From Pseudomonadota bacterium (GTDB lineage: Bacteria > Pseudomonadota > Gammaproteobacteria > Burkholderiales > Burkholderiaceae_C): a DNA stretch of 64,000 nucleotides. Under the pieces are notes generated by a model. The model saw only the letters and a program-made list of their open reading frames with translations, did not search any database and had not been told where the DNA came from. This document shows positions 25,735-30,686 of this stretch, piece by piece (position 1 is the first letter of the stretch; each line of letters opens with the position of its first letter). The DNA lies in NCBI GenBank assembly GCA_021848345.1, contig JAJZUV010000011.1, positions 8,080 through 72,079 of the forward strand, read 5' to 3'. The position numbers were made by a program, and so were the translations under genes.

Positions 25735-27036
25735 TCAGCTCGACTGCCCGGGGTGCAGCACGCGGTCCTGCAGGCGCTTGAAGCCGATGAGCTTCATCAC
25801 GTACTTCTCGTAGATGGGCTCGGAGTTGCCGGTGCGCATCTTGCGCATGAAGTACTTCTCGAAGGCAATCTTGGCCAGGTGCACCCACTTGCCCGAGCCG
25901 AACCAGTTGACGTCGCGCGGCGGGATCTGCGGAATGGCCGCGAAGGCGGCTCCCGTGGTGCCGAAGTCGGCCAGGCAGATGGCTTGCCAGGTGCCCTTGT
26001 GGGTCGGCTGCGCGCCGGCCATCTGCTCCTCCAGGTTGTGCACGATGGCGGTGACCATGGACTCGATCATGAACCCCGTCTTGGGGACCCCGCAGGGCAC
26101 CGGCGTCGGCCCCACCGGAGGGATCGCGATGCACACGCCGGCGGAATAGATGTTGGGATACTTCGGGCTGCGCTGGTGCTCGTCGACGATGACGAAGCCG
26201 CGCGGATTGCACAACCCCTCCACCTTGGCCACCGCGTCGACGCCCTTGAAGGCCGGCAGCATCATCGAGTGCCGGAACGGCAGCTCGTGCTTGCGGAACA
26301 CGTTGCCCAGCGCGTCGAGTTCGTCCACGTACATCTTGCCCTGCTCGACCTTGGTGGTCCTGGCGTTGGTGATCCAGCGGATGTCGTGGTCGCGGAACTC
26401 ATGCTCCATGATGCCCTTGGAGTCGCCCACGCCGTCCAGGCCGAGGTGCCCGATGTAGGGTTCGGCGGTCACGAAGGTGATGGGCACCTTGCTGCGCAAG
26501 CGGCGCTTGCGCAGCGCGGCGTCCAGGATCATCGTGTACTCGTAGGCGGGGCCGAAGCAACTCGCCCCGGGCATGGCGCCGATGATCACGGGGCCGGGCT
26601 GCGCGCACAGGCGCTCGAAATCCTCGAAGCACTTCTCGGCATGGTCGATGGTGCAGATGGACTGGGTGAAGCCGGCGTGCGGGCCCGCTCCCTCCACCTC
26701 CTCGAAGGCCAGCTTCGGGCCGGTGGTGATGATCAGGAAGTCGTAGCTGACGCTGTCGCCGCCCTGCAGCACGATGGTGCTGGAGGCCGCGTCGATGGAT
26801 TGCGCCGGCCGCCCGATGAATTCGATGCCCTTGCGCTCCAGGTAGGGCGCGATGGGCAGCACGACCTGCTCGCGCGAACGCCAACCCACCGCGACCCAGG
26901 GGTTGGACGGCACGAACTGGAAATAGTCGACGCTGTTGATCACCGTGATGCGGTGTTCGCTGCCGAGCTTCGCCCTCGCCTCGTAGGCGGCGGGAAGTCC
27001 GCCGATACCCGCCCCAAGAATGACGATGTGTGCCAT
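25735..27036 (-). CDS. sqr: Sulfide:quinone oxidoreductase, type I (SqrA-like)
   Basis: MAHIVILGAGIGG, FQFVPSNPW, QSICT, ASCFGPAYE, PKTGFMIESM, ICLADFG, WVHLAKIAFEKYF. Confidence 0.95.
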   Translation of the reverse strand: MAHIVILGAGIGGLPAAYEARAKLGSEHRITVINSVDYFQFVPSNPWVAVGWRSREQVVLPIAPYLERKGIEFIGRPAQSIDAASSTIVLQGGDSVSYDFLIITTGPKLAFEEVEGAGPHAGFTQSICTIDHAEKCFEDFERLCAQPGPVIIGAMPGASCFGPAYEYTMILDAALRKRRLRSKVPITFVTAEPYIGHLGLDGVGDSKGIMEHEFRDHDIRWITNARTTKVEQGKMYVDELDALGNVFRKHELPFRHSMMLPAFKGVDAVAKVEGLCNPRGFVIVDEHQRSPKYPNIYSAGVCIAIPPVGPTPVPCGVPKTGFMIESMVTAIVHNLEEQMAGAQPTHKGTWQAICLADFGTTGAAFAAIPQIPPRDVNWFGSGKWVHLAKIAFEKYFMRKMRTGNSEPIYEKYVMKLIGFKRLQDRVLHPGQSS

Positions 27037-27123
27037 GGATGCCTTCCTCTCCTCGCAAAAGCCGGTGGTTGAGCCCCCGGTGTGAACCCCGGGGTGGATC
27101 GGGCAGCTTGCAGGATGCACCGC

Positions 27124-27144
27124 CCTGTATCGACGCAAAACAGG
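27124..27144. promoter_or_regulatory. CCTGT-N11-ACAGG inverted repeat (T-N11-A, LysR-type pattern)
   Basis: CCTGT ATCGACGCAAA ACAGG, 88 nt upstream of the sqr ATG. Confidence 0.3.
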
Positions 27145-27199
27145 ATAACCACCGATGCGAGCCGTGTTTCGCCGCGGACGGCAATGCCGTGGGGCGCGC

Positions 27200-27213
27200 T
27201 TGACGGGCATCAA
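27200..27213. promoter_or_regulatory. FNR/Anr-like box
   Basis: TTGAC-GGGC-ATCAA, 9/10 match to TTGAT-N4-ATCAA, midway in the divergent sqr/yeeE intergenic region. Confidence 0.55.
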
Positions 27214-27372
27214 TGCGCCTGCGAGCTCCCCTGGTGTTCCCCCCAAGCTGACTAACCCTAATACTCCCCACTGCATGTTTCTTTTGTATCTATACTCTCC
27301 CCGCTATCTGCACCGGATGCGCACGATCCTGCCGCGATTCGACGGCACAACGCCTGAGGAGACACGACCGCC

Positions 27373-27879
27373 ATGAAATCCCCTCGCCCTCTGTGGAACC
27401 CCTATGTAGCCGGCGTGGTGCTGGGCGCCGCGCTGCTGGCCACCTTCCTGGTGACCGGCAACGGCTACGGCGTGACCGGCGCCACCACGCTGGCCACGGC
27501 CGCGGCGGCCGGGCACCTCGCCGCCGGCACGGTGGCCCCCGGCACCTACCTGCACGGCCTGTTCGACGCCGGGCTGAATCACTGGATCACTTGGGAAGTC
27601 GTCGGCCTGGCCATCGGCGCGCTCGCCGGCAGCCTGCTGGCCGGACGCTTTCGCTGGGAGCTCGACGGCCCGGCGCGAGCGGCGCGCGGCTTGCGCCTGG
27701 TCCTGGCCCTGGCGGGAGGCACCGCCTCCGGCTTCGGGGCGCGCCTGGCCCTGGGCTGCACCAGCGGCATGGGCCTGTCCGGAGGCGCCACGCTGGCGGC
27801 CGCCGGCTTCCTGTTCCTGATCGGCTTTTTCGTCGCCGGCATCGCGTTCGGGCAAATCACCAAGGGGCTGTGGAAATGA
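27373..27879 (+). CDS. YeeE/YedE-family sulfur-compound transport membrane protein (half 1)
   Basis: WNPYVAGVVLG, multiple TM helices, GFGARLALGCTSG. Confidence 0.85.
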   Translation: MKSPRPLWNPYVAGVVLGAALLATFLVTGNGYGVTGATTLATAAAAGHLAAGTVAPGTYLHGLFDAGLNHWITWEVVGLAIGALAGSLLAGRFRWELDGPARAARGLRLVLALAGGTASGFGARLALGCTSGMGLSGGATLAAAGFLFLIGFFVAGIAFGQITKGLWK

Positions 27880-28451
27880 GTTTTCCTCTGGGGTATACGG
27901 GCCCGATCTCGGGCTTGCTACTGGGCACCGTATTCGGCTACGTGCTGGAGAACGCCGGTTTCGGCAGCGGCTGCAAGCTGACCGCGCAGCTGCGCTTCCA
28001 GGACTGGGCCGTGTTCAAGGTCATGTTCACCGCCATCGTGGTGGCCTCCGGCGGCCTGTACCTGCTGCAGGGCCTGGGCCTGATGAACGTGACCAACGAT
28101 CTGTTCGTCCCCTCCGTGTTCCTGTGGGGAAGCTCGCTGGGAGGCGTGCTCATCGGCGCCGGCATGGCCATCGGAGGCTATTGCCCCGGCACCTCGCTGG
28201 TGGCGTTCTGCTCCGGGCGGGTGGACGGGCTGGTGTTCCTGCTGGGCATCGTGCTGGGCACGCTGGGTTTCAACTCGGGCTACGAGTCCATCAAGACCTG
28301 GGCCTGGAAACAGGTGGGCCCCGACTCCCTGACCCTGCCGCAACTGCTGCACCTGCCGGCCTGGGCCGTGTGGGCGTTGCTGCTCGCGGTGCTGCTGGTC
28401 GTGGGCTACCTCACCCGCGGCAACGGCACCAGCGGGCGCCAGGCGGCTTGA
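27876..28451 (+). CDS. YeeE/YedE-family sulfur-compound transport membrane protein (half 2)
   Basis: GTVFGYVLE, QDWAVFKVMFTAI, GGYCPGTS; ATGA overlap with half 1. Confidence 0.85.
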   Translation: MSFPLGYTGPISGLLLGTVFGYVLENAGFGSGCKLTAQLRFQDWAVFKVMFTAIVVASGGLYLLQGLGLMNVTNDLFVPSVFLWGSSLGGVLIGAGMAIGGYCPGTSLVAFCSGRVDGLVFLLGIVLGTLGFNSGYESIKTWAWKQVGPDSLTLPQLLHLPAWAVWALLLAVLLVVGYLTRGNGTSGRQAA

Positions 28452-28616
28452 TCCGGGTCAAGCGCCCCGCGACCAGCCTCAGCGAAGCCCGGCTACCCGG
28501 CACTACGATGATCCGCTTTGCGTCACGCGGCCCGAGCTTGCGCGCAACCGCGCGAGCCGACGCCGCGGGCGCTCCCGACCCGCATTTCGTCGACCACCAT
28601 TGGAAGGAGACCGATC

Positions 28617-28883
28617 ATGGCGAAGTCCCGCATCAAGACCCGTATCAAGCTGTCCCACGCCCTGCCCGTGCTGGCGCTGGCCGCCGCGGCCGTGGCGCCC
28701 ATGCCCCAGGCGCTGCGCGCCGCGTCGCCCACGGCGCTGGCGCAGGCCTCGGCCAATCCCTGCGCGCCGGGCAACCCCTGCGCCCCGGGCGGAGCCAAGA
28801 AGAAGGCCAAGGCCGGCAACCCCTGCGCGCCCGCCGGCGGCAAGTCGAAGAAGAAGTCGGCCAACCCCTGCGCGCCGAACTGA
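28617..28883 (+). CDS. 88-aa probably exported peptide with four NPCAP repeats
   Basis: AAGGAG RBS at 28604-28609; basic N-terminus + hydrophobic stretch + A-x-A; NPCAP at 28755, 28773, 28818 and 28863 with Lys-rich spacers. Confidence 0.8.
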   Translation: MAKSRIKTRIKLSHALPVLALAAAAVAPMPQALRAASPTALAQASANPCAPGNPCAPGGAKKKAKAGNPCAPAGGKSKKKSANPCAPN

Positions 28884-28909
28884 GCATCGCAGGCACCGGC
28901 CGCAGCGCC

Positions 28910-29599
28910 GTGAGCACCCGCATCGCCCCTTCGCGCGAGCGATTGCTCGACGCGCTGCGCCGAGCGCCGCGCCGGCCGCTGGATGCGGCGCTCCAGGGCA
29001 CGCTTCGACACCTGCGCGCCAGCGCGCGCAGCGGCCGCGGCGTGCTGGCGGACCTGCTCGGGCGGGCCGAGGGCTTCGCCGAGTGGGAACACTACCCCCC
29101 GCGCGACGCGCTCGACGCGCGCAGCGGCTACCGCTTCTACTACCACGCCCACGCGGCGCAGCAACGAGTCCGAGGCGAGCACGGTCATTTCCACGTCTTC
29201 GCCCCGCGGCGCCCGCGCCGCGCGGGCGAAGCCGACTACGTGCACCTGTTCGGCCTGTCGGTCGATGCCCGCGGCATGCCGCTGCGCGTGTTCACCACCA
29301 ATCGCTGGGTCACCGCCGAGCACTGGCAGGACGCCGCCTGGACCCTGCGCGCACTGCGCCGGCTGGACCTTTCGCATGCTCGCCCGCGGCGCGTCGCCAG
29401 CTGGCTGGAGCACATGGCGCGATTGTTCGCACCCCAGATCGAGGCCGTGGTGCTCGAACGCGATCGACGGGTGGCCGAGCGCGCCCGTCGGCGCCCGCGC
29501 GAACAGGTGCTCGAGGACCGGCGCAGCCACATTCTCAGCCAGTGCGCCGCGGACCTGGCGCGCCAGCTCGACATCCTGCAGGCCGCGGATCTCGCCTGA
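28910..29599 (+). CDS. Uncharacterised His-rich protein (resembles DUF6969 from memory; unverified)
   Basis: WEHYP, YRFYYHAH, EHGHFHVF, HLFGLSVD, FTTNRWVT; GTG start inferred; same strand between the peptide and the rhodanese. Confidence 0.75.
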   Translation: MSTRIAPSRERLLDALRRAPRRPLDAALQGTLRHLRASARSGRGVLADLLGRAEGFAEWEHYPPRDALDARSGYRFYYHAHAAQQRVRGEHGHFHVFAPRRPRRAGEADYVHLFGLSVDARGMPLRVFTTNRWVTAEHWQDAAWTLRALRRLDLSHARPRRVASWLEHMARLFAPQIEAVVLERDRRVAERARRRPREQVLEDRRSHILSQCAADLARQLDILQAADLA

Positions 29600-29652
29600 A
29601 GGCGACGCGACCGACCACCGTTCACGCTTGTTGTTCAACCCGGAGGAGAACC

Positions 29653-30639
29653 ATGAAGACCCTGAAGTACCTGCTGGCAGCCGGCTTCGTCGGCGCCTGT
29701 GTGCAATTGGCCTCTGCGGCCACCCTGCCCGGTCCGCTGGTCACGCCGCAATGGCTGCATCAGCACCGTTCCGAGGTGACCGTCCTGGATATCCGCGACG
29801 ACATGGACACGCTGACCCGCGCGCCCAAGTTCGAGGTGGACAAGAAGACCGGCGCGAAGAAGCTGGTGGCCACCGGCGGTCACCTGGAAGGCGCGCTGTC
29901 GGTGGACTTCGGCAAGATCCGCCAGAACAAGGAAATCGACGGCAAGAAGATCGTCGCCCAGCTGCCCAGCGCCGAGTACTTCACCAAGGTGATGGACGAG
30001 GCCGGCCTGGACAAGGGCAAGCCCATCGTCATCGTGCCCACCGGCGAGACCGTGGACACCATGGACATGGCCACGCGACTGTATTTCCAGCTGCGCTACT
30101 TCGGCGAGCCCGAAGGCCAGGTGGCGATTCTCAACGGCGGCGTCAATGCCTGGCTGCAGGACGGCCTGCCGGTGAGCACCGCCAAGGTCAGCGCCCCCAA
30201 GGGTGACTGGGCCGCCACCGGCGAGGACAAGCAGATCCTCGCCACGCTCGATCAGGTCAAGGAAGGCCTGCGCAGCGGCGCCGACCAGTTCGTCGACGCG
30301 CGTCCCACGCCGCAGTTCCTGGGCATCGTGGTCAAGCGTCCGGTGGACGCGGCTGGCGGCCACCTGCCCGGCGCGCGCTCCTTCCCCACCGACGCCATCG
30401 TGCGCCCGGTGGGCGCCGCGCACGAGTTCATGAGCGCCGCCGACTACCGCAAGATATACGCCGAGTACGGCATCCAGCCGGGCGCCTCGACCGTGACCTA
30501 CTGCAACACCGGGCACCTGGCCTCGGGCGCCTGGTTCGTGGATCACGAGATCCTGGGCAACCCCAAGACCCGCCTGTACACCGGTTCCATGACCGAGTGG
30601 ACCAACCTGGGCAACCCGACCGTCGGCCTGCCGGGCTGA
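29653..30639 (+). CDS. Exported tandem-domain rhodanese/sulfurtransferase
   Basis: GGAGGAG RBS; Sec signal MKTLKYLLAAGFVGACVQLASA; LVTPQWL, ILNGG, VDAR, GHLPGA, YCNTGHLA, LYTGSMTEW. Confidence 0.92.
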   Translation: MKTLKYLLAAGFVGACVQLASAATLPGPLVTPQWLHQHRSEVTVLDIRDDMDTLTRAPKFEVDKKTGAKKLVATGGHLEGALSVDFGKIRQNKEIDGKKIVAQLPSAEYFTKVMDEAGLDKGKPIVIVPTGETVDTMDMATRLYFQLRYFGEPEGQVAILNGGVNAWLQDGLPVSTAKVSAPKGDWAATGEDKQILATLDQVKEGLRSGADQFVDARPTPQFLGIVVKRPVDAAGGHLPGARSFPTDAIVRPVGAAHEFMSAADYRKIYAEYGIQPGASTVTYCNTGHLASGAWFVDHEILGNPKTRLYTGSMTEWTNLGNPTVGLPG

Positions 30640-30660
30640 GCGTCGGCAGGAAGAGGAACG

Positions 30661-30686
30661 AGGGGCGCCGTCGGCGCCCCTTTTTT
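30661..30686 (+). terminator. Rho-independent terminator closing the yeeE...rhodanese unit
   Basis: AGGGGCGCCG / CGGCGCCCCT hairpin followed by a T run. Confidence 0.8.

Follow-up and report, generated by a model that had tools for sequence, protein, structure and literature searches.

A DUF6969 protein with a conserved histidine cluster is encoded next to Sec-exported Pro-Cys-repeat proteins, often in sulfur-gene clusters, in Proteobacteria

A 64,000-nucleotide stretch of DNA from a Pseudomonadota bacterium (contig JAJZUV010000011.1; hereafter the window) very likely contains a real gene for a cytoplasmic DUF6969 protein with an alpha+beta fold and an invariant putative metal site, encoded as the fourth gene of an operon that also carries its Pro-Cys-repeat partner. 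Across Alpha-, Beta- and Gammaproteobacteria the most faithful partner of DUF6969 is a Sec-exported protein made of x-P-C-x-x repeats, a relationship that is strongly supported by the loci compared. The protein probably represents a new metal enzyme whose chemistry concerns sulfur or cysteine peptides.

The gene encodes 229 residues followed by a stop codon. In a Pfam HMM search the product matched PF22308 (DUF6969) with an E-value of 7.1e-60 and 202.5 bits, where the cut-off is 27 bits, and profile positions 5-200 of 201 were covered. The match is end to end and well outside chance, and the resemblance to this family that the initial annotation had suggested was correct. NCBI lists such proteins as 'DUF6969 family protein'. 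The four motifs singled out there, WEHYP (residues 59-63), FYYHAH (76-81), EHGHFHVF (90-97) and FTTNRWVT (128-135), are all present. The family-invariant elements HYP, YYHxH, EHGHFH, H112, FTTNRWVT and RD are likewise all found in the window protein, and they are conserved in 35 homologues and in the 138 representatives described below. The GTG start is supported, since homologues align from residue 1. The close spacing reported between this gene and the stop of the preceding peptide gene was seen again, and only the figure changes: 26 nt lie between the genes, the earlier value of 27 nt having been counted to the start base.

The N-terminus of the protein is hydrophilic and predicted to be helical. 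It has no hydrophobic stretch, in line with the earlier remark that no signal peptide is obvious, and a hydrophobic run of at least 10 residues within the first 45 is also absent from 137 of the 138 representatives. No alignment column carries Cys in more than 40 of these 138 proteins, and no rhodanese, TusA/YeeD or DsrE domain was found by Pfam in the DUF6969 protein, which has no conserved catalytic Cys. The lack of both a signal peptide and a conserved Cys indicates a cytoplasmic protein that is not a persulfide-relay transferase. At 50% identity the family comprises about 1,060 clusters (1,064 representatives). Among the best 150 of the 1,064 no informative domain fusion was present; the departures from the standard architecture were a tandem duplication (homologue P0122), membrane tethering through a coiled coil and TM helix with an SH3-like tail (homologue P0231), and probable mis-called starts. 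Literature and PDB searches for DUF6969/PF22308 returned no characterised member, solved structure or paper, and literature searches with the NPCAP, NPCGP and NPCAA motifs and with Thiomonas/YeeE/rhodanese combinations returned nothing relevant. The locus also occurs in mine and mine-drainage metagenomes among public runs.

Table 1. Features of the DUF6969 locus in the window. Residue counts refer to 138 family representatives.
Feature	Position	Strand	Details
Sulfide:quinone oxidoreductase, type-I-like	25735..27036	-	Pyr_redox_2 E 8.7e-16; divergently transcribed
PmpA/YedE-like half-size YeeE	27373..27879	+	PF04143 E 3.3e-18, profile 177-308 of 310
PmpB/YedE-like half-size YeeE	27876..28451	+	PF04143 E 6e-16, profile 4-149 of 310
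Sec-signal NPCAP peptide, Lys-rich, 88 aa	28617..28883	+	four NPCAP motifs; TGA ends at 28883
DUF6969 protein, 229 aa	28910..29599	+	GTG start; predicted cytoplasmic, alpha+beta fold
His61 codon, WEHYP motif	29090..29092	+	129/138
His79-Ala-His81 (HxH)	29144..29152	+	end of predicted strand 75-80; His79 138/138, His81 137/138
Glu90-His91-Gly92-His93-Phe94-His95	29177..29194	+	start of predicted strand 92-99; E90 131/138, H91 114/138, G92, H93 and H95 each 138/138
His112 codon	29243..29245	+	predicted strand 110-118; 138/138
FTTNRWVT motif (F128-T135), Glu137 next	29291..29314	+	N131 137/138, W133 and V134 138/138, T135 132/138
Arg184-Asp185	29459..29464	+	C-terminal helical part; R184 138/138, D185 133/138
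Periplasmic tandem-domain rhodanese	29653..30639	+	signal peptide MKTLKYLLAAGFVGACVQLASA; PF00581 E 3.6e-18, two stretches
Bidirectional intrinsic-terminator-like hairpin	30660..30682	.	10-bp stem, 8 GC pairs, T tract

The arrangement of the genes strongly supports a five-gene operon composed of the pmpA-like gene, the pmpB-like gene, the NPCAP peptide gene, the DUF6969 gene (gene 4) and the rhodanese gene, divergent from sqr. The genes overlap or are closely spaced and share a single terminator, and thus appear to form one operon. The hairpin, with 10-nt arms that are 100% complementary, is placed between the rhodanese gene and the convergent murB, and no comparable terminator-like site was found within 27373-30639. 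The likely start of sqr is MAHIVILGAG at 27036, where the mechanical ORF reaches 27276, and sqr is kept beside the module in 15 related loci. By resemblance to the Acidithiobacillus SQR sequence it is a putative type I, periplasm-facing SQR. The two importer genes correspond to the PmpA and PmpB halves defined earlier (PMC11582611): the PmpA-like protein matches Sulf_transp over the C-terminal half of that profile and has the conserved Cys in LGCTSGMG, and the start of the PmpB-like gene overlaps the stop of its predecessor (ATGA). The rhodanese has the active-site loop CNTGHL and sub-threshold matches to 3-mercaptopyruvate sulfurtransferase and ExtH; in 42 loci a rhodanese lies directly downstream of DUF6969.

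Conservation of the histidine cluster was counted over 138 diverse and unbiased DUF6969 representatives with identities down to 26%. The initial annotation had made its proposal dependent on conservation of these residues in homologues, and conserved they are: four histidines (79, 93, 95 and 112) occur in every representative and His81 in all but one. In the predicted structure (pLDDT 95.4), which consists of helices and a 5-7-stranded sheet, the His residues are located on three adjacent predicted beta-strands (75-80, 92-99 and 110-118). On the basis of sequence and model, His79, 81, 93, 95 and 112, together with His61, His91, Glu90, Asn131, Glu137, Arg184 and Asp185, are interpreted most simply as binding a metal or a cofactor. 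The metal centre suggested earlier from HxH and HGHFH is thereby strengthened by the invariant His on three adjacent strands, short of proof. Foldseek comparison of the model yielded no relative either in the PDB (best E 0.87, TM below 0.33) or in BFVD (best E 0.32), and the family profile gave chance matches alone against PDB sequences (E ~0.7). Hence the structural search, to which the metal-centre proposal had also been exposed, revealed no match to a known unrelated fold. The YYHAH and HGHFH motifs recall, as a lead at the sequence level, the HxH + H of alpha-carbonic anhydrase, Cu,Zn-SOD, and WYHSH/HxHxH of multicopper oxidases. HxH on neighbouring antiparallel strands is common to these beta-sheet His sites and to DUF6969, but none of the three proteins was structurally matched by the model (Foldseek, PDB).

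The NPCAP peptide belongs to no Pfam or NCBIfam family, and the 10 close sequence homologues found are all without names. A secreted x-P-C-x-x repeat protein was seen directly upstream and on the same strand in about 56 of 81 DUF6969 loci, including those of Methylocapsa, Pseudorhodoplanes, Sneathiella, Legionellales, Polynucleobacter, Thiomonas and Arenimonas. When metagenome loci were anchored on the peptide, with unrelated collagen-like PCAPV repeats excluded by eye from the pattern scan, DUF6969 was directly downstream in about 38 of the ~55 that could be evaluated (~70%), and mostly overlapped the peptide gene or started within ~100 nt of it. The stretches examined were 2-17 kb per locus. 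The linkage elsewhere to sulfur genes or Cys-peptide genes on which the initial annotation had staked its proposal is therefore strong and broad. In six loci (L046, L024, L060, L085, L118 and L159) peptide and DUF6969 form an isolated two-gene cassette, away from any YeeE, rhodanese or sox gene. DUF6969 also remains the next gene where the repeats are fused to a periplasmic domain, namely cytochrome P460, cytochrome c or a DUF442/DSP-phosphatase-like sulfurtransferase.

In every motif variant inspected the Pro-Cys dipeptide is kept, and the flanks and the repeat number (1 to 34) vary. The alphaproteobacterial motif is NPCAA, NPC[A/G]P contains C-x-P, and the partner in Legionellales carries HPCMP repeats and is rich in Met and His. 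Some peptides have a single Cys near the C-terminus, as in ...KKKRAANPCAGQ (L033) and ...RRRRGPCDV (L039). The pair thus has the layout of a RiPP system, with a short precursor beside the enzyme and a conserved target in a variable core. It is accompanied by no RiPP-recognition partner, no protease and no exporter, and the signal sequences of the peptides differ between lineages, so that recognition would rest on the short PC motif.

Within the 2-17 kb examined per locus the link between enzyme and peptide is not obligate, and exceptions occur both ways. YeeE-peptide-rhodanese(-sox) loci without DUF6969 were found (L138, L169 and L141), and in about 17 peptide loci the fetched stretch held no DUF6969. 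Conversely, in about 20 loci, which form an alphaproteobacterial clade, DUF6969 accompanies DUF2336, a domain with incidental mentions in the literature, and no peptide is encoded upstream. The core residues in this clade are identical to those of the rest of the family, which implies that the chemistry is unchanged where no peptide gene adjoins. A PC motif carried as a C-terminal tail on the neighbouring rhodanese of this clade was considered and dropped, the tail being present in 2 of 4 sequences.

We tentatively favour, as the foremost of several readings none of which is by itself probable, that DUF6969 is a metal-dependent enzyme which modifies or primes the peptide cysteines before export. 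As an O2-dependent, non-haem metal enzyme it would meet the PC-repeat precursor in the cytoplasm, still unfolded, and act on its cysteines ahead of Sec export, by a logic resembling that seen with signal-peptide RiPPs such as bufferins and oxazolins or in the generation of formylglycine. The peptide, once matured into a multi-arm molecule, might then cooperate in the periplasm with the PmpAB importer, the rhodanese and either SQR or Sox, and carry or chelate sulfane sulfur or a thiophilic metal. The genera of the named hosts, which we take to be aerobic or microaerophilic Proteobacteria, fit O2-dependent chemistry. Points against this role are the exceptions to the linkage, the missing RiPP partner genes, and a TlpA-like periplasmic thioredoxin that lies beside the peptide-DUF6969 pair in two genomes and suggests that the peptide cysteines work as free thiols. 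Of the functions guessed at in the initial annotation, the sulfur dioxygenase-like and the peptide-modifying enzyme have become the two leading hypotheses, and the transferase is disfavoured by the absence of a conserved Cys.

The modifying role stands narrowly ahead of an unlikely but serious competitor, in which DUF6969 would be a metal-dependent enzyme that consumes, in the cytoplasm, the sulfane sulfur delivered by the PmpAB/YedE1E2-type split YeeE importer. Its activity would be that of an oxidase, a dioxygenase or a lyase, with zero-valent sulfur, glutathione persulfide or thiosulfate as substrate, and it would either have a PDO-like role as in yedE1-yedE2-pdo operons or reset the sulfane signal of an ArsR/SoxR-type repressor; the NPC peptide and rhodanese would be the periplasmic delivery arm. 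The gene order YeeE_A-YeeE_B-peptide-DUF6969-Rhod2, kept in about 40 of 81 loci and often abutting soxCDYZAXB or sqr, is consistent with such a role. So is the fact that the cluster's products are otherwise periplasmic or membrane-bound, DUF6969 and an ArsR-type regulator alone being soluble and cytoplasmic. No PDO gene is encoded within the window. Import of zero-valent sulfur by YedE1E2 is functionally coupled to PDO, with yedE1-yedE2-pdo2 operons known (PMC10812762), and YeeE proteins of the SoxT type bring in sulfur that serves oxidation and signalling (PMC11582611). The peptide-less clade, with its identical core residues and with a rhodanese adjoining DUF6969 in 4 loci, also speaks for consumption of sulfur. 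However, the isolated cassettes have no importer nearby, some YeeE-peptide-rhodanese-sox loci manage without DUF6969, and the fold and motifs are unlike those of PDO, SOR or cupin dioxygenases. Moreover, an ETHE1-type MBL gene (ETHAHADH motif) shares the sulfur island with DUF6969 in L020 and L091, which weakens the idea of DUF6969 as a simple PDO replacement. MBL genes beside YeeE in other loci were also considered as PDO; they carry lipoprotein or signal peptides, and were thus assigned as SoxH-like.

Defence against a thiophilic metal such as Cu(I), with the peptide buffering the periplasm, DUF6969 binding or detoxifying in the cytoplasm, and the linkage to sulfur genes reflecting shared sulfide and metal chemistry, is improbable. 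The Legionellales HPCMP-repeat partner has the Met- and His-rich composition typical of Cu(I) binders. Genes near DUF6969 in some Alphaproteobacteria point the same way: FGE-sulfatase-domain genes with signal peptides in 9 loci, FGE being a copper enzyme, TlpA-like thioredoxins, and an NrsF-like anti-sigma factor. The origin of the host from mine drainage and the bufferin precedent (PMC11626156) would also suit metal defence. Against it, conserved copper or metal efflux, CopZ/CueR or czc neighbours are absent and YeeE, rhodanese, sox and sqr dominate, and the invariant Asn, Trp, Arg and Asp, together with the fixed geometry of the His, suggest a catalytic or cofactor site rather than a buffer. 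Least probable is a non-enzymatic DUF6969 with a sensing, adaptor or export-chaperone role in the cytoplasm, where it might, for instance, dock on PmpAB or hold the Cys-rich precursor in a reduced, unfolded state for Sec: the tight, probably translational, gene coupling, the lack of informative enzyme-domain fusions and the two unusual homologues, one membrane-tethered and the other a duplication suggestive of a dimeric scaffold, would agree with it, but a set of five invariant His, joined by acidic and amide residues and kept in sequences with as little as 26% identity, is far more what one expects of a catalytic metal site, and neither Pfam nor Foldseek revealed a DNA-binding fold or a known chaperone fold.

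Sulfur oxidation still poses the question how sulfane sulfur travels in the periplasm, passes to YeeE-type importers and is handled in the cytoplasm (PMC11582611). To sulfur clusters the module adds two undescribed and widespread parts, the exported Pro-Cys-repeat peptides and a cytoplasmic five-His protein without a known fold. Should DUF6969 turn out to modify the peptide, signal-peptide RiPPs would gain a new class of enzyme; should it turn out to use up imported sulfur, it would be a sulfur-oxidising enzyme of a new kind. The most far-reaching version, which we judge somewhat unlikely, is that DUF6969 founds a non-MNIO class of metalloenzymes of unseen fold that modify Cys of Sec-exported Pro-Cys-repeat proteins and so generate a widespread periplasmic multi-arm carrier of sulfur or thiophilic metal feeding SQR, Sox, rhodanese and PmpAB. 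Dissimilatory sulfur oxidation would then contain a RiPP-like family not seen before.

Comparison with known enzymes sets DUF6969 apart from the cupins (CDO, ADO, quercetinase-like): no cupin appeared among the Pfam or Foldseek matches, and the spacing from HxH to Glu is 8 residues, against 3-4 in the cupin motif G(X)5HXH(X)3-4E(X)6G. Operons of the YedE1E2/PmpAB-PDO-rhodanese-SQR kind (BigR/blh, yedE1-yedE2-pdo2) combine, as here, a split YeeE importer, a rhodanese and SQR in one island, and have an ArsR-type regulator (here in relatives) and one cytoplasmic enzyme gene after the importer (PMC10812762, PMC11582611). In contrast to them, the enzyme here is DUF6969 in place of a PDO of metallo-beta-lactamase fold, and there is an additional exported Cys peptide. 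The DUF6969 protein gave no Lactamase_B match at E-values up to 1 and has no HxHxDH motif.

In SoxYZ the carrier Cys belongs to SoxY, on its C-terminal GGCGG arm. The peptide, often encoded beside soxCDYZAXB, would likewise offer periplasmic Cys on flexible Pro/Ala/Lys-rich arms, as a putative carrier. It differs in having no SoxY or SoxZ domain, in a motif repeated 1 to 34 times, and in its export by Sec, whereas SoxYZ is exported via Tat. FGE, acting on C-x-P-x-R of sulfatases, represents a like concept, an O2-dependent metal enzyme that modifies Cys of an unfolded, export-bound protein; DUF6969 has no FGE-sulfatase domain, and the peptide motif is without the sulfatase Arg.

Bufferin and oxazolin systems (MNIO) place an exported repeat-Cys precursor beside a cytoplasmic His-rich oxidative metalloenzyme, and the gene layout here, with DUF6969 as the putative metalloenzyme, is of the same kind. 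The DUF6969 pair differs from them in being without the DUF692 TIM-barrel, DUF2063 and DoxX: Pfam gives DUF6969 only, and neither DUF2063 nor DoxX is present among the four other operon genes. The motif is x-P-C-x-x here and EGKCG there, and the neighbours are sulfur-oxidation genes here and copper-stress genes there. MNIO substrates vary in repeat number and occur as fusions to larger exported proteins (PMC12452194, PMC11626156), and variation of the same kind is seen in the Pro-Cys-repeat proteins.

The initial annotation had placed a His-rich protein between a Cys peptide and a rhodanese and suggested a resemblance to DUF6969. A Pfam search bears this out: the match to PF22308 spans profile positions 5-200 of 201 and scores 202.5 bits (cut-off 27; E 7.1e-60), whereas NCBIfam lacks a model for it. 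Each of the quoted motifs was located, WEHYP at residues 59-63, FYYHAH at 76-81, EHGHFHVF at 90-97 and FTTNRWVT at 128-135. The gene does follow the peptide gene, with 26 nt rather than the 27 nt first counted between the peptide stop (28883) and the GTG, and this start codon is supported by close homologues, whose alignment begins at residue 1. Among 5.8 billion proteins 682 matches were found, all with PF22308 and all unnamed, 'hypothetical' or 'DUF6969 family protein', from organisms including Thiomonas, Acidiphilium, Salinisphaera, Spectribacter and Tibeticola. When 1.84 billion representatives were searched exhaustively by profile, 1,064 clusters at 50% identity emerged, represented nearly always by single-domain proteins of 200-290 aa. 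No function-informative domain fusion was seen among the best 150 of these 1,064. One homologue is membrane-tethered, and another (P0122, 497 aa) carries two complete DUF6969 domains in tandem, which hints at a dimer as the functional unit. A mine-associated proteobacterial MAG is the nearest relative (98% identity), and the public runs containing the locus are mine and mine-drainage metagenomes. The literature searched does not mention DUF6969, PF22308 or the peptide motif.

Residue conservation was assessed on 138 of the 1,064 representatives, not motif-selected and 26-49% identical to the query. Histidines of the HxH and HGHFH motifs, from which the initial annotation proposed a metal centre, proved conserved: His79, His93 and His95 are invariant (138/138), as are His112, Gly92, Phe97, Trp133, Val134 and Arg184. 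Nearly invariant are His81 and Asn131 (137 each), Asp185 (133), Thr135 (132), Glu90 (131) and His61 (129); Glu137 (118) and His91 (114) are less conserved. An N-terminal hydrophobic run is absent from 137 of the 138, which argues for a cytoplasmic protein. At no alignment position do more than 40 of the 138 sequences carry Cys; a role as Cys-persulfide relay was therefore ruled out.

An AlphaFold2 model built with a 35-sequence alignment is very confident (pLDDT 95.4, pTM 0.92). It consists of helices at 9-50, a five-strand antiparallel meander (62-68, 75-80, 92-99, 110-118, 124-130) and C-terminal helices. HxH, HxHxH and His112 are placed on three consecutive strands and, judging from side-chain alternation, should share one face of the sheet. 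Foldseek returned nothing significant from the PDB (best E 0.87, TM <0.33) or BFVD, and a profile search of PDB sequences gave chance matches only; the structural check suggested earlier thus revealed no known fold and none that contradicts the annotation. YYHAH and HGHFH presumably resemble the beta-sheet metal sites of alpha-carbonic anhydrase, Cu,Zn-SOD and multicopper oxidases at the sequence level, a likeness with no fold match behind it.

Features of the window and of retrieved comparison loci (L numbers; anchored on DUF6969 or on the PC-repeat peptide)
Feature	Position or loci	Strand	Remarks
Sulfide:quinone oxidoreductase (sqr)	25735-27036	-	divergent from operon
Half-size YeeE, PmpA-like	27373-27879	+	C-terminal half of Sulf_transp (Pfam)
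Half-size YeeE, PmpB-like	27876-28451	+	N-terminal half of Sulf_transp (Pfam)
PC-repeat peptide	28617-28883	+	NPCAP x4, 88 aa, Sec-type signal peptide, Lys-rich mature part (translation)
DUF6969 gene	28910-29599	+	GTG start, 229 aa
Tandem-domain rhodanese	29653-30639	+	signal peptide (family search)
Terminator-like hairpin	30660-30682		the only strong one; directly 3' of rhodanese
Single-Cys peptide between YeeE_B and DUF6969	L033 7612-7863; L039 182-490		secreted, Pro/Ala/Lys-rich, Cys near C-terminus
P460 or c-type cytochrome repeat fusions	L052 3098-4249; L063 6245-7477; L072 6073-7374; L053 7080-7850; L128, L133, L139
DUF442-like repeat fusions	L090 10066-10881; L114 1211-2002; L119, L153, L177, L193, L195
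FGE-sulfatase-domain neighbours	L026, L034, L044, L047, L063, L064, L072, L076; L175
DUF6969 then same-strand DUF2336 (Rhodospirillales clade)	L028, L031, L036, L037, L042, L045, L047, L057, L067-L070, L077, L080
SQR/FCSD-like and ETHE1-type genes	L020 12253-14494; L091 6647-7549
HPCMP-repeat protein and DUF6969 cassette	L046 7293-8666
TlpA/ResA-like thioredoxin (WCPPC or WCAPC)	L024 8676-9536	-	Methylocapsa aurea
TlpA/ResA-like thioredoxin (WCPPC or WCAPC)	L060 6695-7357	+	Pseudorhodoplanes

In the window operon the start of the pmpB-like gene overlaps the stop of the pmpA-like gene. The pmpB-like stop and the peptide start lie an unusually long 165 nt apart (28452-28616). This gap contains an imperfect inverted repeat (28526-28544 / 28549-28567; 19-nt arms, 74% complementary), which may serve in regulation or processing within the operon. 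The divergent intergenic region between sqr and the pmpA-like gene (27037-27372, 336 nt) contains no match to a sigma-70-like consensus, and no regulator gene lies beside it in the window lineage, in contrast to the ArsR-containing Polynucleobacter loci. No other sox, persulfide dioxygenase or DUF6969 gene is found in the 64-kb window. The flanking genes appear to be housekeeping (argG, murB, plsY and others, named from their translations). Far from the sulfur island, a small ORF (1420-1815, +) shows weak similarity to single-domain rhodaneses (E 5e-7).

Conserved ORFs of 80 genome loci and the window were clustered, and the clusters were named by Pfam. Since retrieval relied on the patterns EHGHFH[VLI]F and FTTN[RQ]WVT, the loci are unusable for judging conservation of those motifs. 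The order YeeE_A, YeeE_B (the half-size PmpA/PmpB-like proteins), small peptide, DUF6969, two-domain periplasmic rhodanese recurs in ~40 of the 81. This block often adjoins soxCDYZAXB (Polynucleobacter, Arenimonas, Noviherbaspirillum and others) or, in the Thiomonas-like lineage including the window, sqr; some loci have an ArsR-type regulator as well, together with a YgaP-like membrane protein. In ~56 of 81, counting the single-Cys peptides of L033 and L039, the gene immediately 5' of DUF6969 in the same orientation encodes a secreted PC-repeat protein, with repeats of the form [N/H/S/K]-P-C-[A/G/M/S]-[P/A]. In a neighbour-joining tree the peptide-less loci group into contiguous alphaproteobacterial branches, including Azospirillum and other Rhodospirillales. 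In them DUF6969 is followed by DUF2336, sometimes with an adjoining single-domain rhodanese, and its core residues do not differ from those of peptide-linked members. In Azospirillum this pair lies 3' of an MlaD/ABC-auxiliary-lipoprotein transport operon.

The reciprocal test was carried out on metagenome contigs scanned for DNA coding C-A-P...N-P-C-[AG]-P...N-P-C-[AG]-P, which gave 120 loci; unrelated collagen-like PCAPV repeats and loci with too little downstream sequence were left out. DUF6969 lies immediately downstream of ~38 of ~55 true signal-peptide PC-repeat proteins, mostly overlapping or within ~100 nt. In ~17 peptide loci no DUF6969 was present in the stretch fetched, and L138, L169 and L141 read YeeE-peptide-rhodanese(-sox) with no room for it. 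With the peptide-less DUF6969 loci counted too, the link does not appear obligate in either direction within the 2-17 kb examined per locus. Lone pairs of peptide and DUF6969 occur in L085, L118 and L159 and in L024 and L060, and in L046 (a Legionellales MAG) an HPCMP-repeat protein and DUF6969 stand alone among housekeeping genes. Taken together, both sets of counts and the lone pairs make the PC-repeat protein the most faithful partner of DUF6969, and linkage to sulfur or Cys-peptide genes elsewhere, whose lack would have counted against the initial annotation, is found in both.

The window peptide has no Pfam or NCBIfam family and only ten sequence homologues, all unnamed. Exported Pro-Cys-repeat peptides form an unannotated family at well over 100 loci near YeeE, rhodanese and sox genes: a Sec signal is followed by 1 to 34 copies of [N/H/S]-P-C-[A/G/M]-[P/A] with Lys/Ala/Pro-rich linkers. 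The single-Cys peptides end in ...KKKRAANPCAGQ and ...RRRRGPCDV (L033, L039), which brings to mind SoxY with its C-terminal Cys arm. The L046 repeat protein (216 aa, secreted) is Met/His-rich, a composition typical of Cu(I) binders; arginine deiminase, L25, pth and ychF surround the cassette. In Alphaproteobacteria cytochrome P460 proteins (some with a lipobox) or c-type cytochromes carry as many as 34 fused NPCAA-type repeats, still adjoining DUF6969. Full-length YeeE and FGE-sulfatase-like genes lie near such loci, the latter encoding secreted proteins that recur beside DUF6969 and NPC proteins; the C-x-P part of the sulfatase motif C-x-P-x-R is contained in NPC[A/G]P. Elsewhere, a signal peptide and NPCAP repeats precede a fused DSP-phosphatase/BLH_phosphatase (DUF442-like) domain whose loop reads HC(E/Q)SSNR; DUF6969 follows in most loci, with none in the stretch fetched for L193 and L195. 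This fusion would be a periplasmic Rhd442-type putative sulfurtransferase with its own Cys arms; the sulfurtransferase Rhd442 is a characterised example of the domain type (PMC11582611).

Other neighbours were also recorded. The peptide-DUF6969 pair adjoins a TlpA-like periplasmic thioredoxin in L024 and L060; conserved genes nearby encode an NrsF-like (DUF1109) anti-sigma factor and a radical-SAM protein. In Polynucleobacter-type islands the stretch from the DUF6969 module to soxCD includes a second SQR/FCSD-like flavoprotein and a metallo-beta-lactamase of ETHE1 type; from its ETHAHADH motif the latter is likely a persulfide dioxygenase.

These results make it highly probable that the protein truly belongs to DUF6969, is cytoplasmic, has an uncharacterised fold and carries a conserved metal or cofactor site based on His, and that it is part of a conserved module of exported Pro-Cys-repeat and periplasmic or membrane sulfur-handling proteins. 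The observation made initially holds, and its hedged interpretation, a metal centre in a proposed sulfur or peptide-modifying enzyme, is supported. For the mechanism we infer two close readings. Ranked first, tentatively, DUF6969 may act on the PC-repeat precursor, at its cysteines, while this is still in the cytoplasm, because no other neighbour is as universal as the peptide, coupling of the two genes is tight, some cassettes consist of this pair alone and several exported proteins carry the repeats as if these were a portable module. The named hosts, too, all come from genera regarded as aerobic or microaerophilic, which fits O2-dependent chemistry. Second, and somewhat doubtful, DUF6969 could be a cytoplasmic consumer of PmpAB-imported sulfane sulfur, with a persulfide dioxygenase-like or signal-resetting role: nothing else in the island is a candidate for a cytoplasmic enzyme, the putative active site is identical in the peptide-less clade and a rhodanese adjoins DUF6969 in 4 peptide-less loci, but cassettes without the importer exist and two islands (L020, L091) have an ETHE1-type dioxygenase alongside. 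A role in metal homeostasis is unlikely, and a non-catalytic one slightly more so.

Half-size YeeE proteins (PmpA/PmpB, YedE1E2) have been proposed to form heterodimers. Zero-valent sulfur is taken up by YedE1E2, whose coupling to persulfide dioxygenase is functional and often also genetic (PMC10812762; PMC11582611). SoxT-type YeeE imports sulfur for oxidation and for signalling to the ArsR-type SoxR (PMC11582611). Bufferins and oxazolins are RiPP precursors with a signal peptide and Cys repeats, which multi-iron MNIO (DUF692) enzymes modify in the cytoplasm (PMC12452194; PMC11626156). They provide a precedent both for modification before Sec export and for repeats fused to larger proteins, as with the PC repeats. 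By sequence the window protein is an ordinary member of a catalogued DUF; the module, which joins a five-His protein of no known fold and an unannotated family of exported PC-repeat peptides to a split YeeE importer and a rhodanese in the periplasm, appears undescribed and may be likened to signal-peptide RiPP logic or to YedE-PDO-type sulfur islands.
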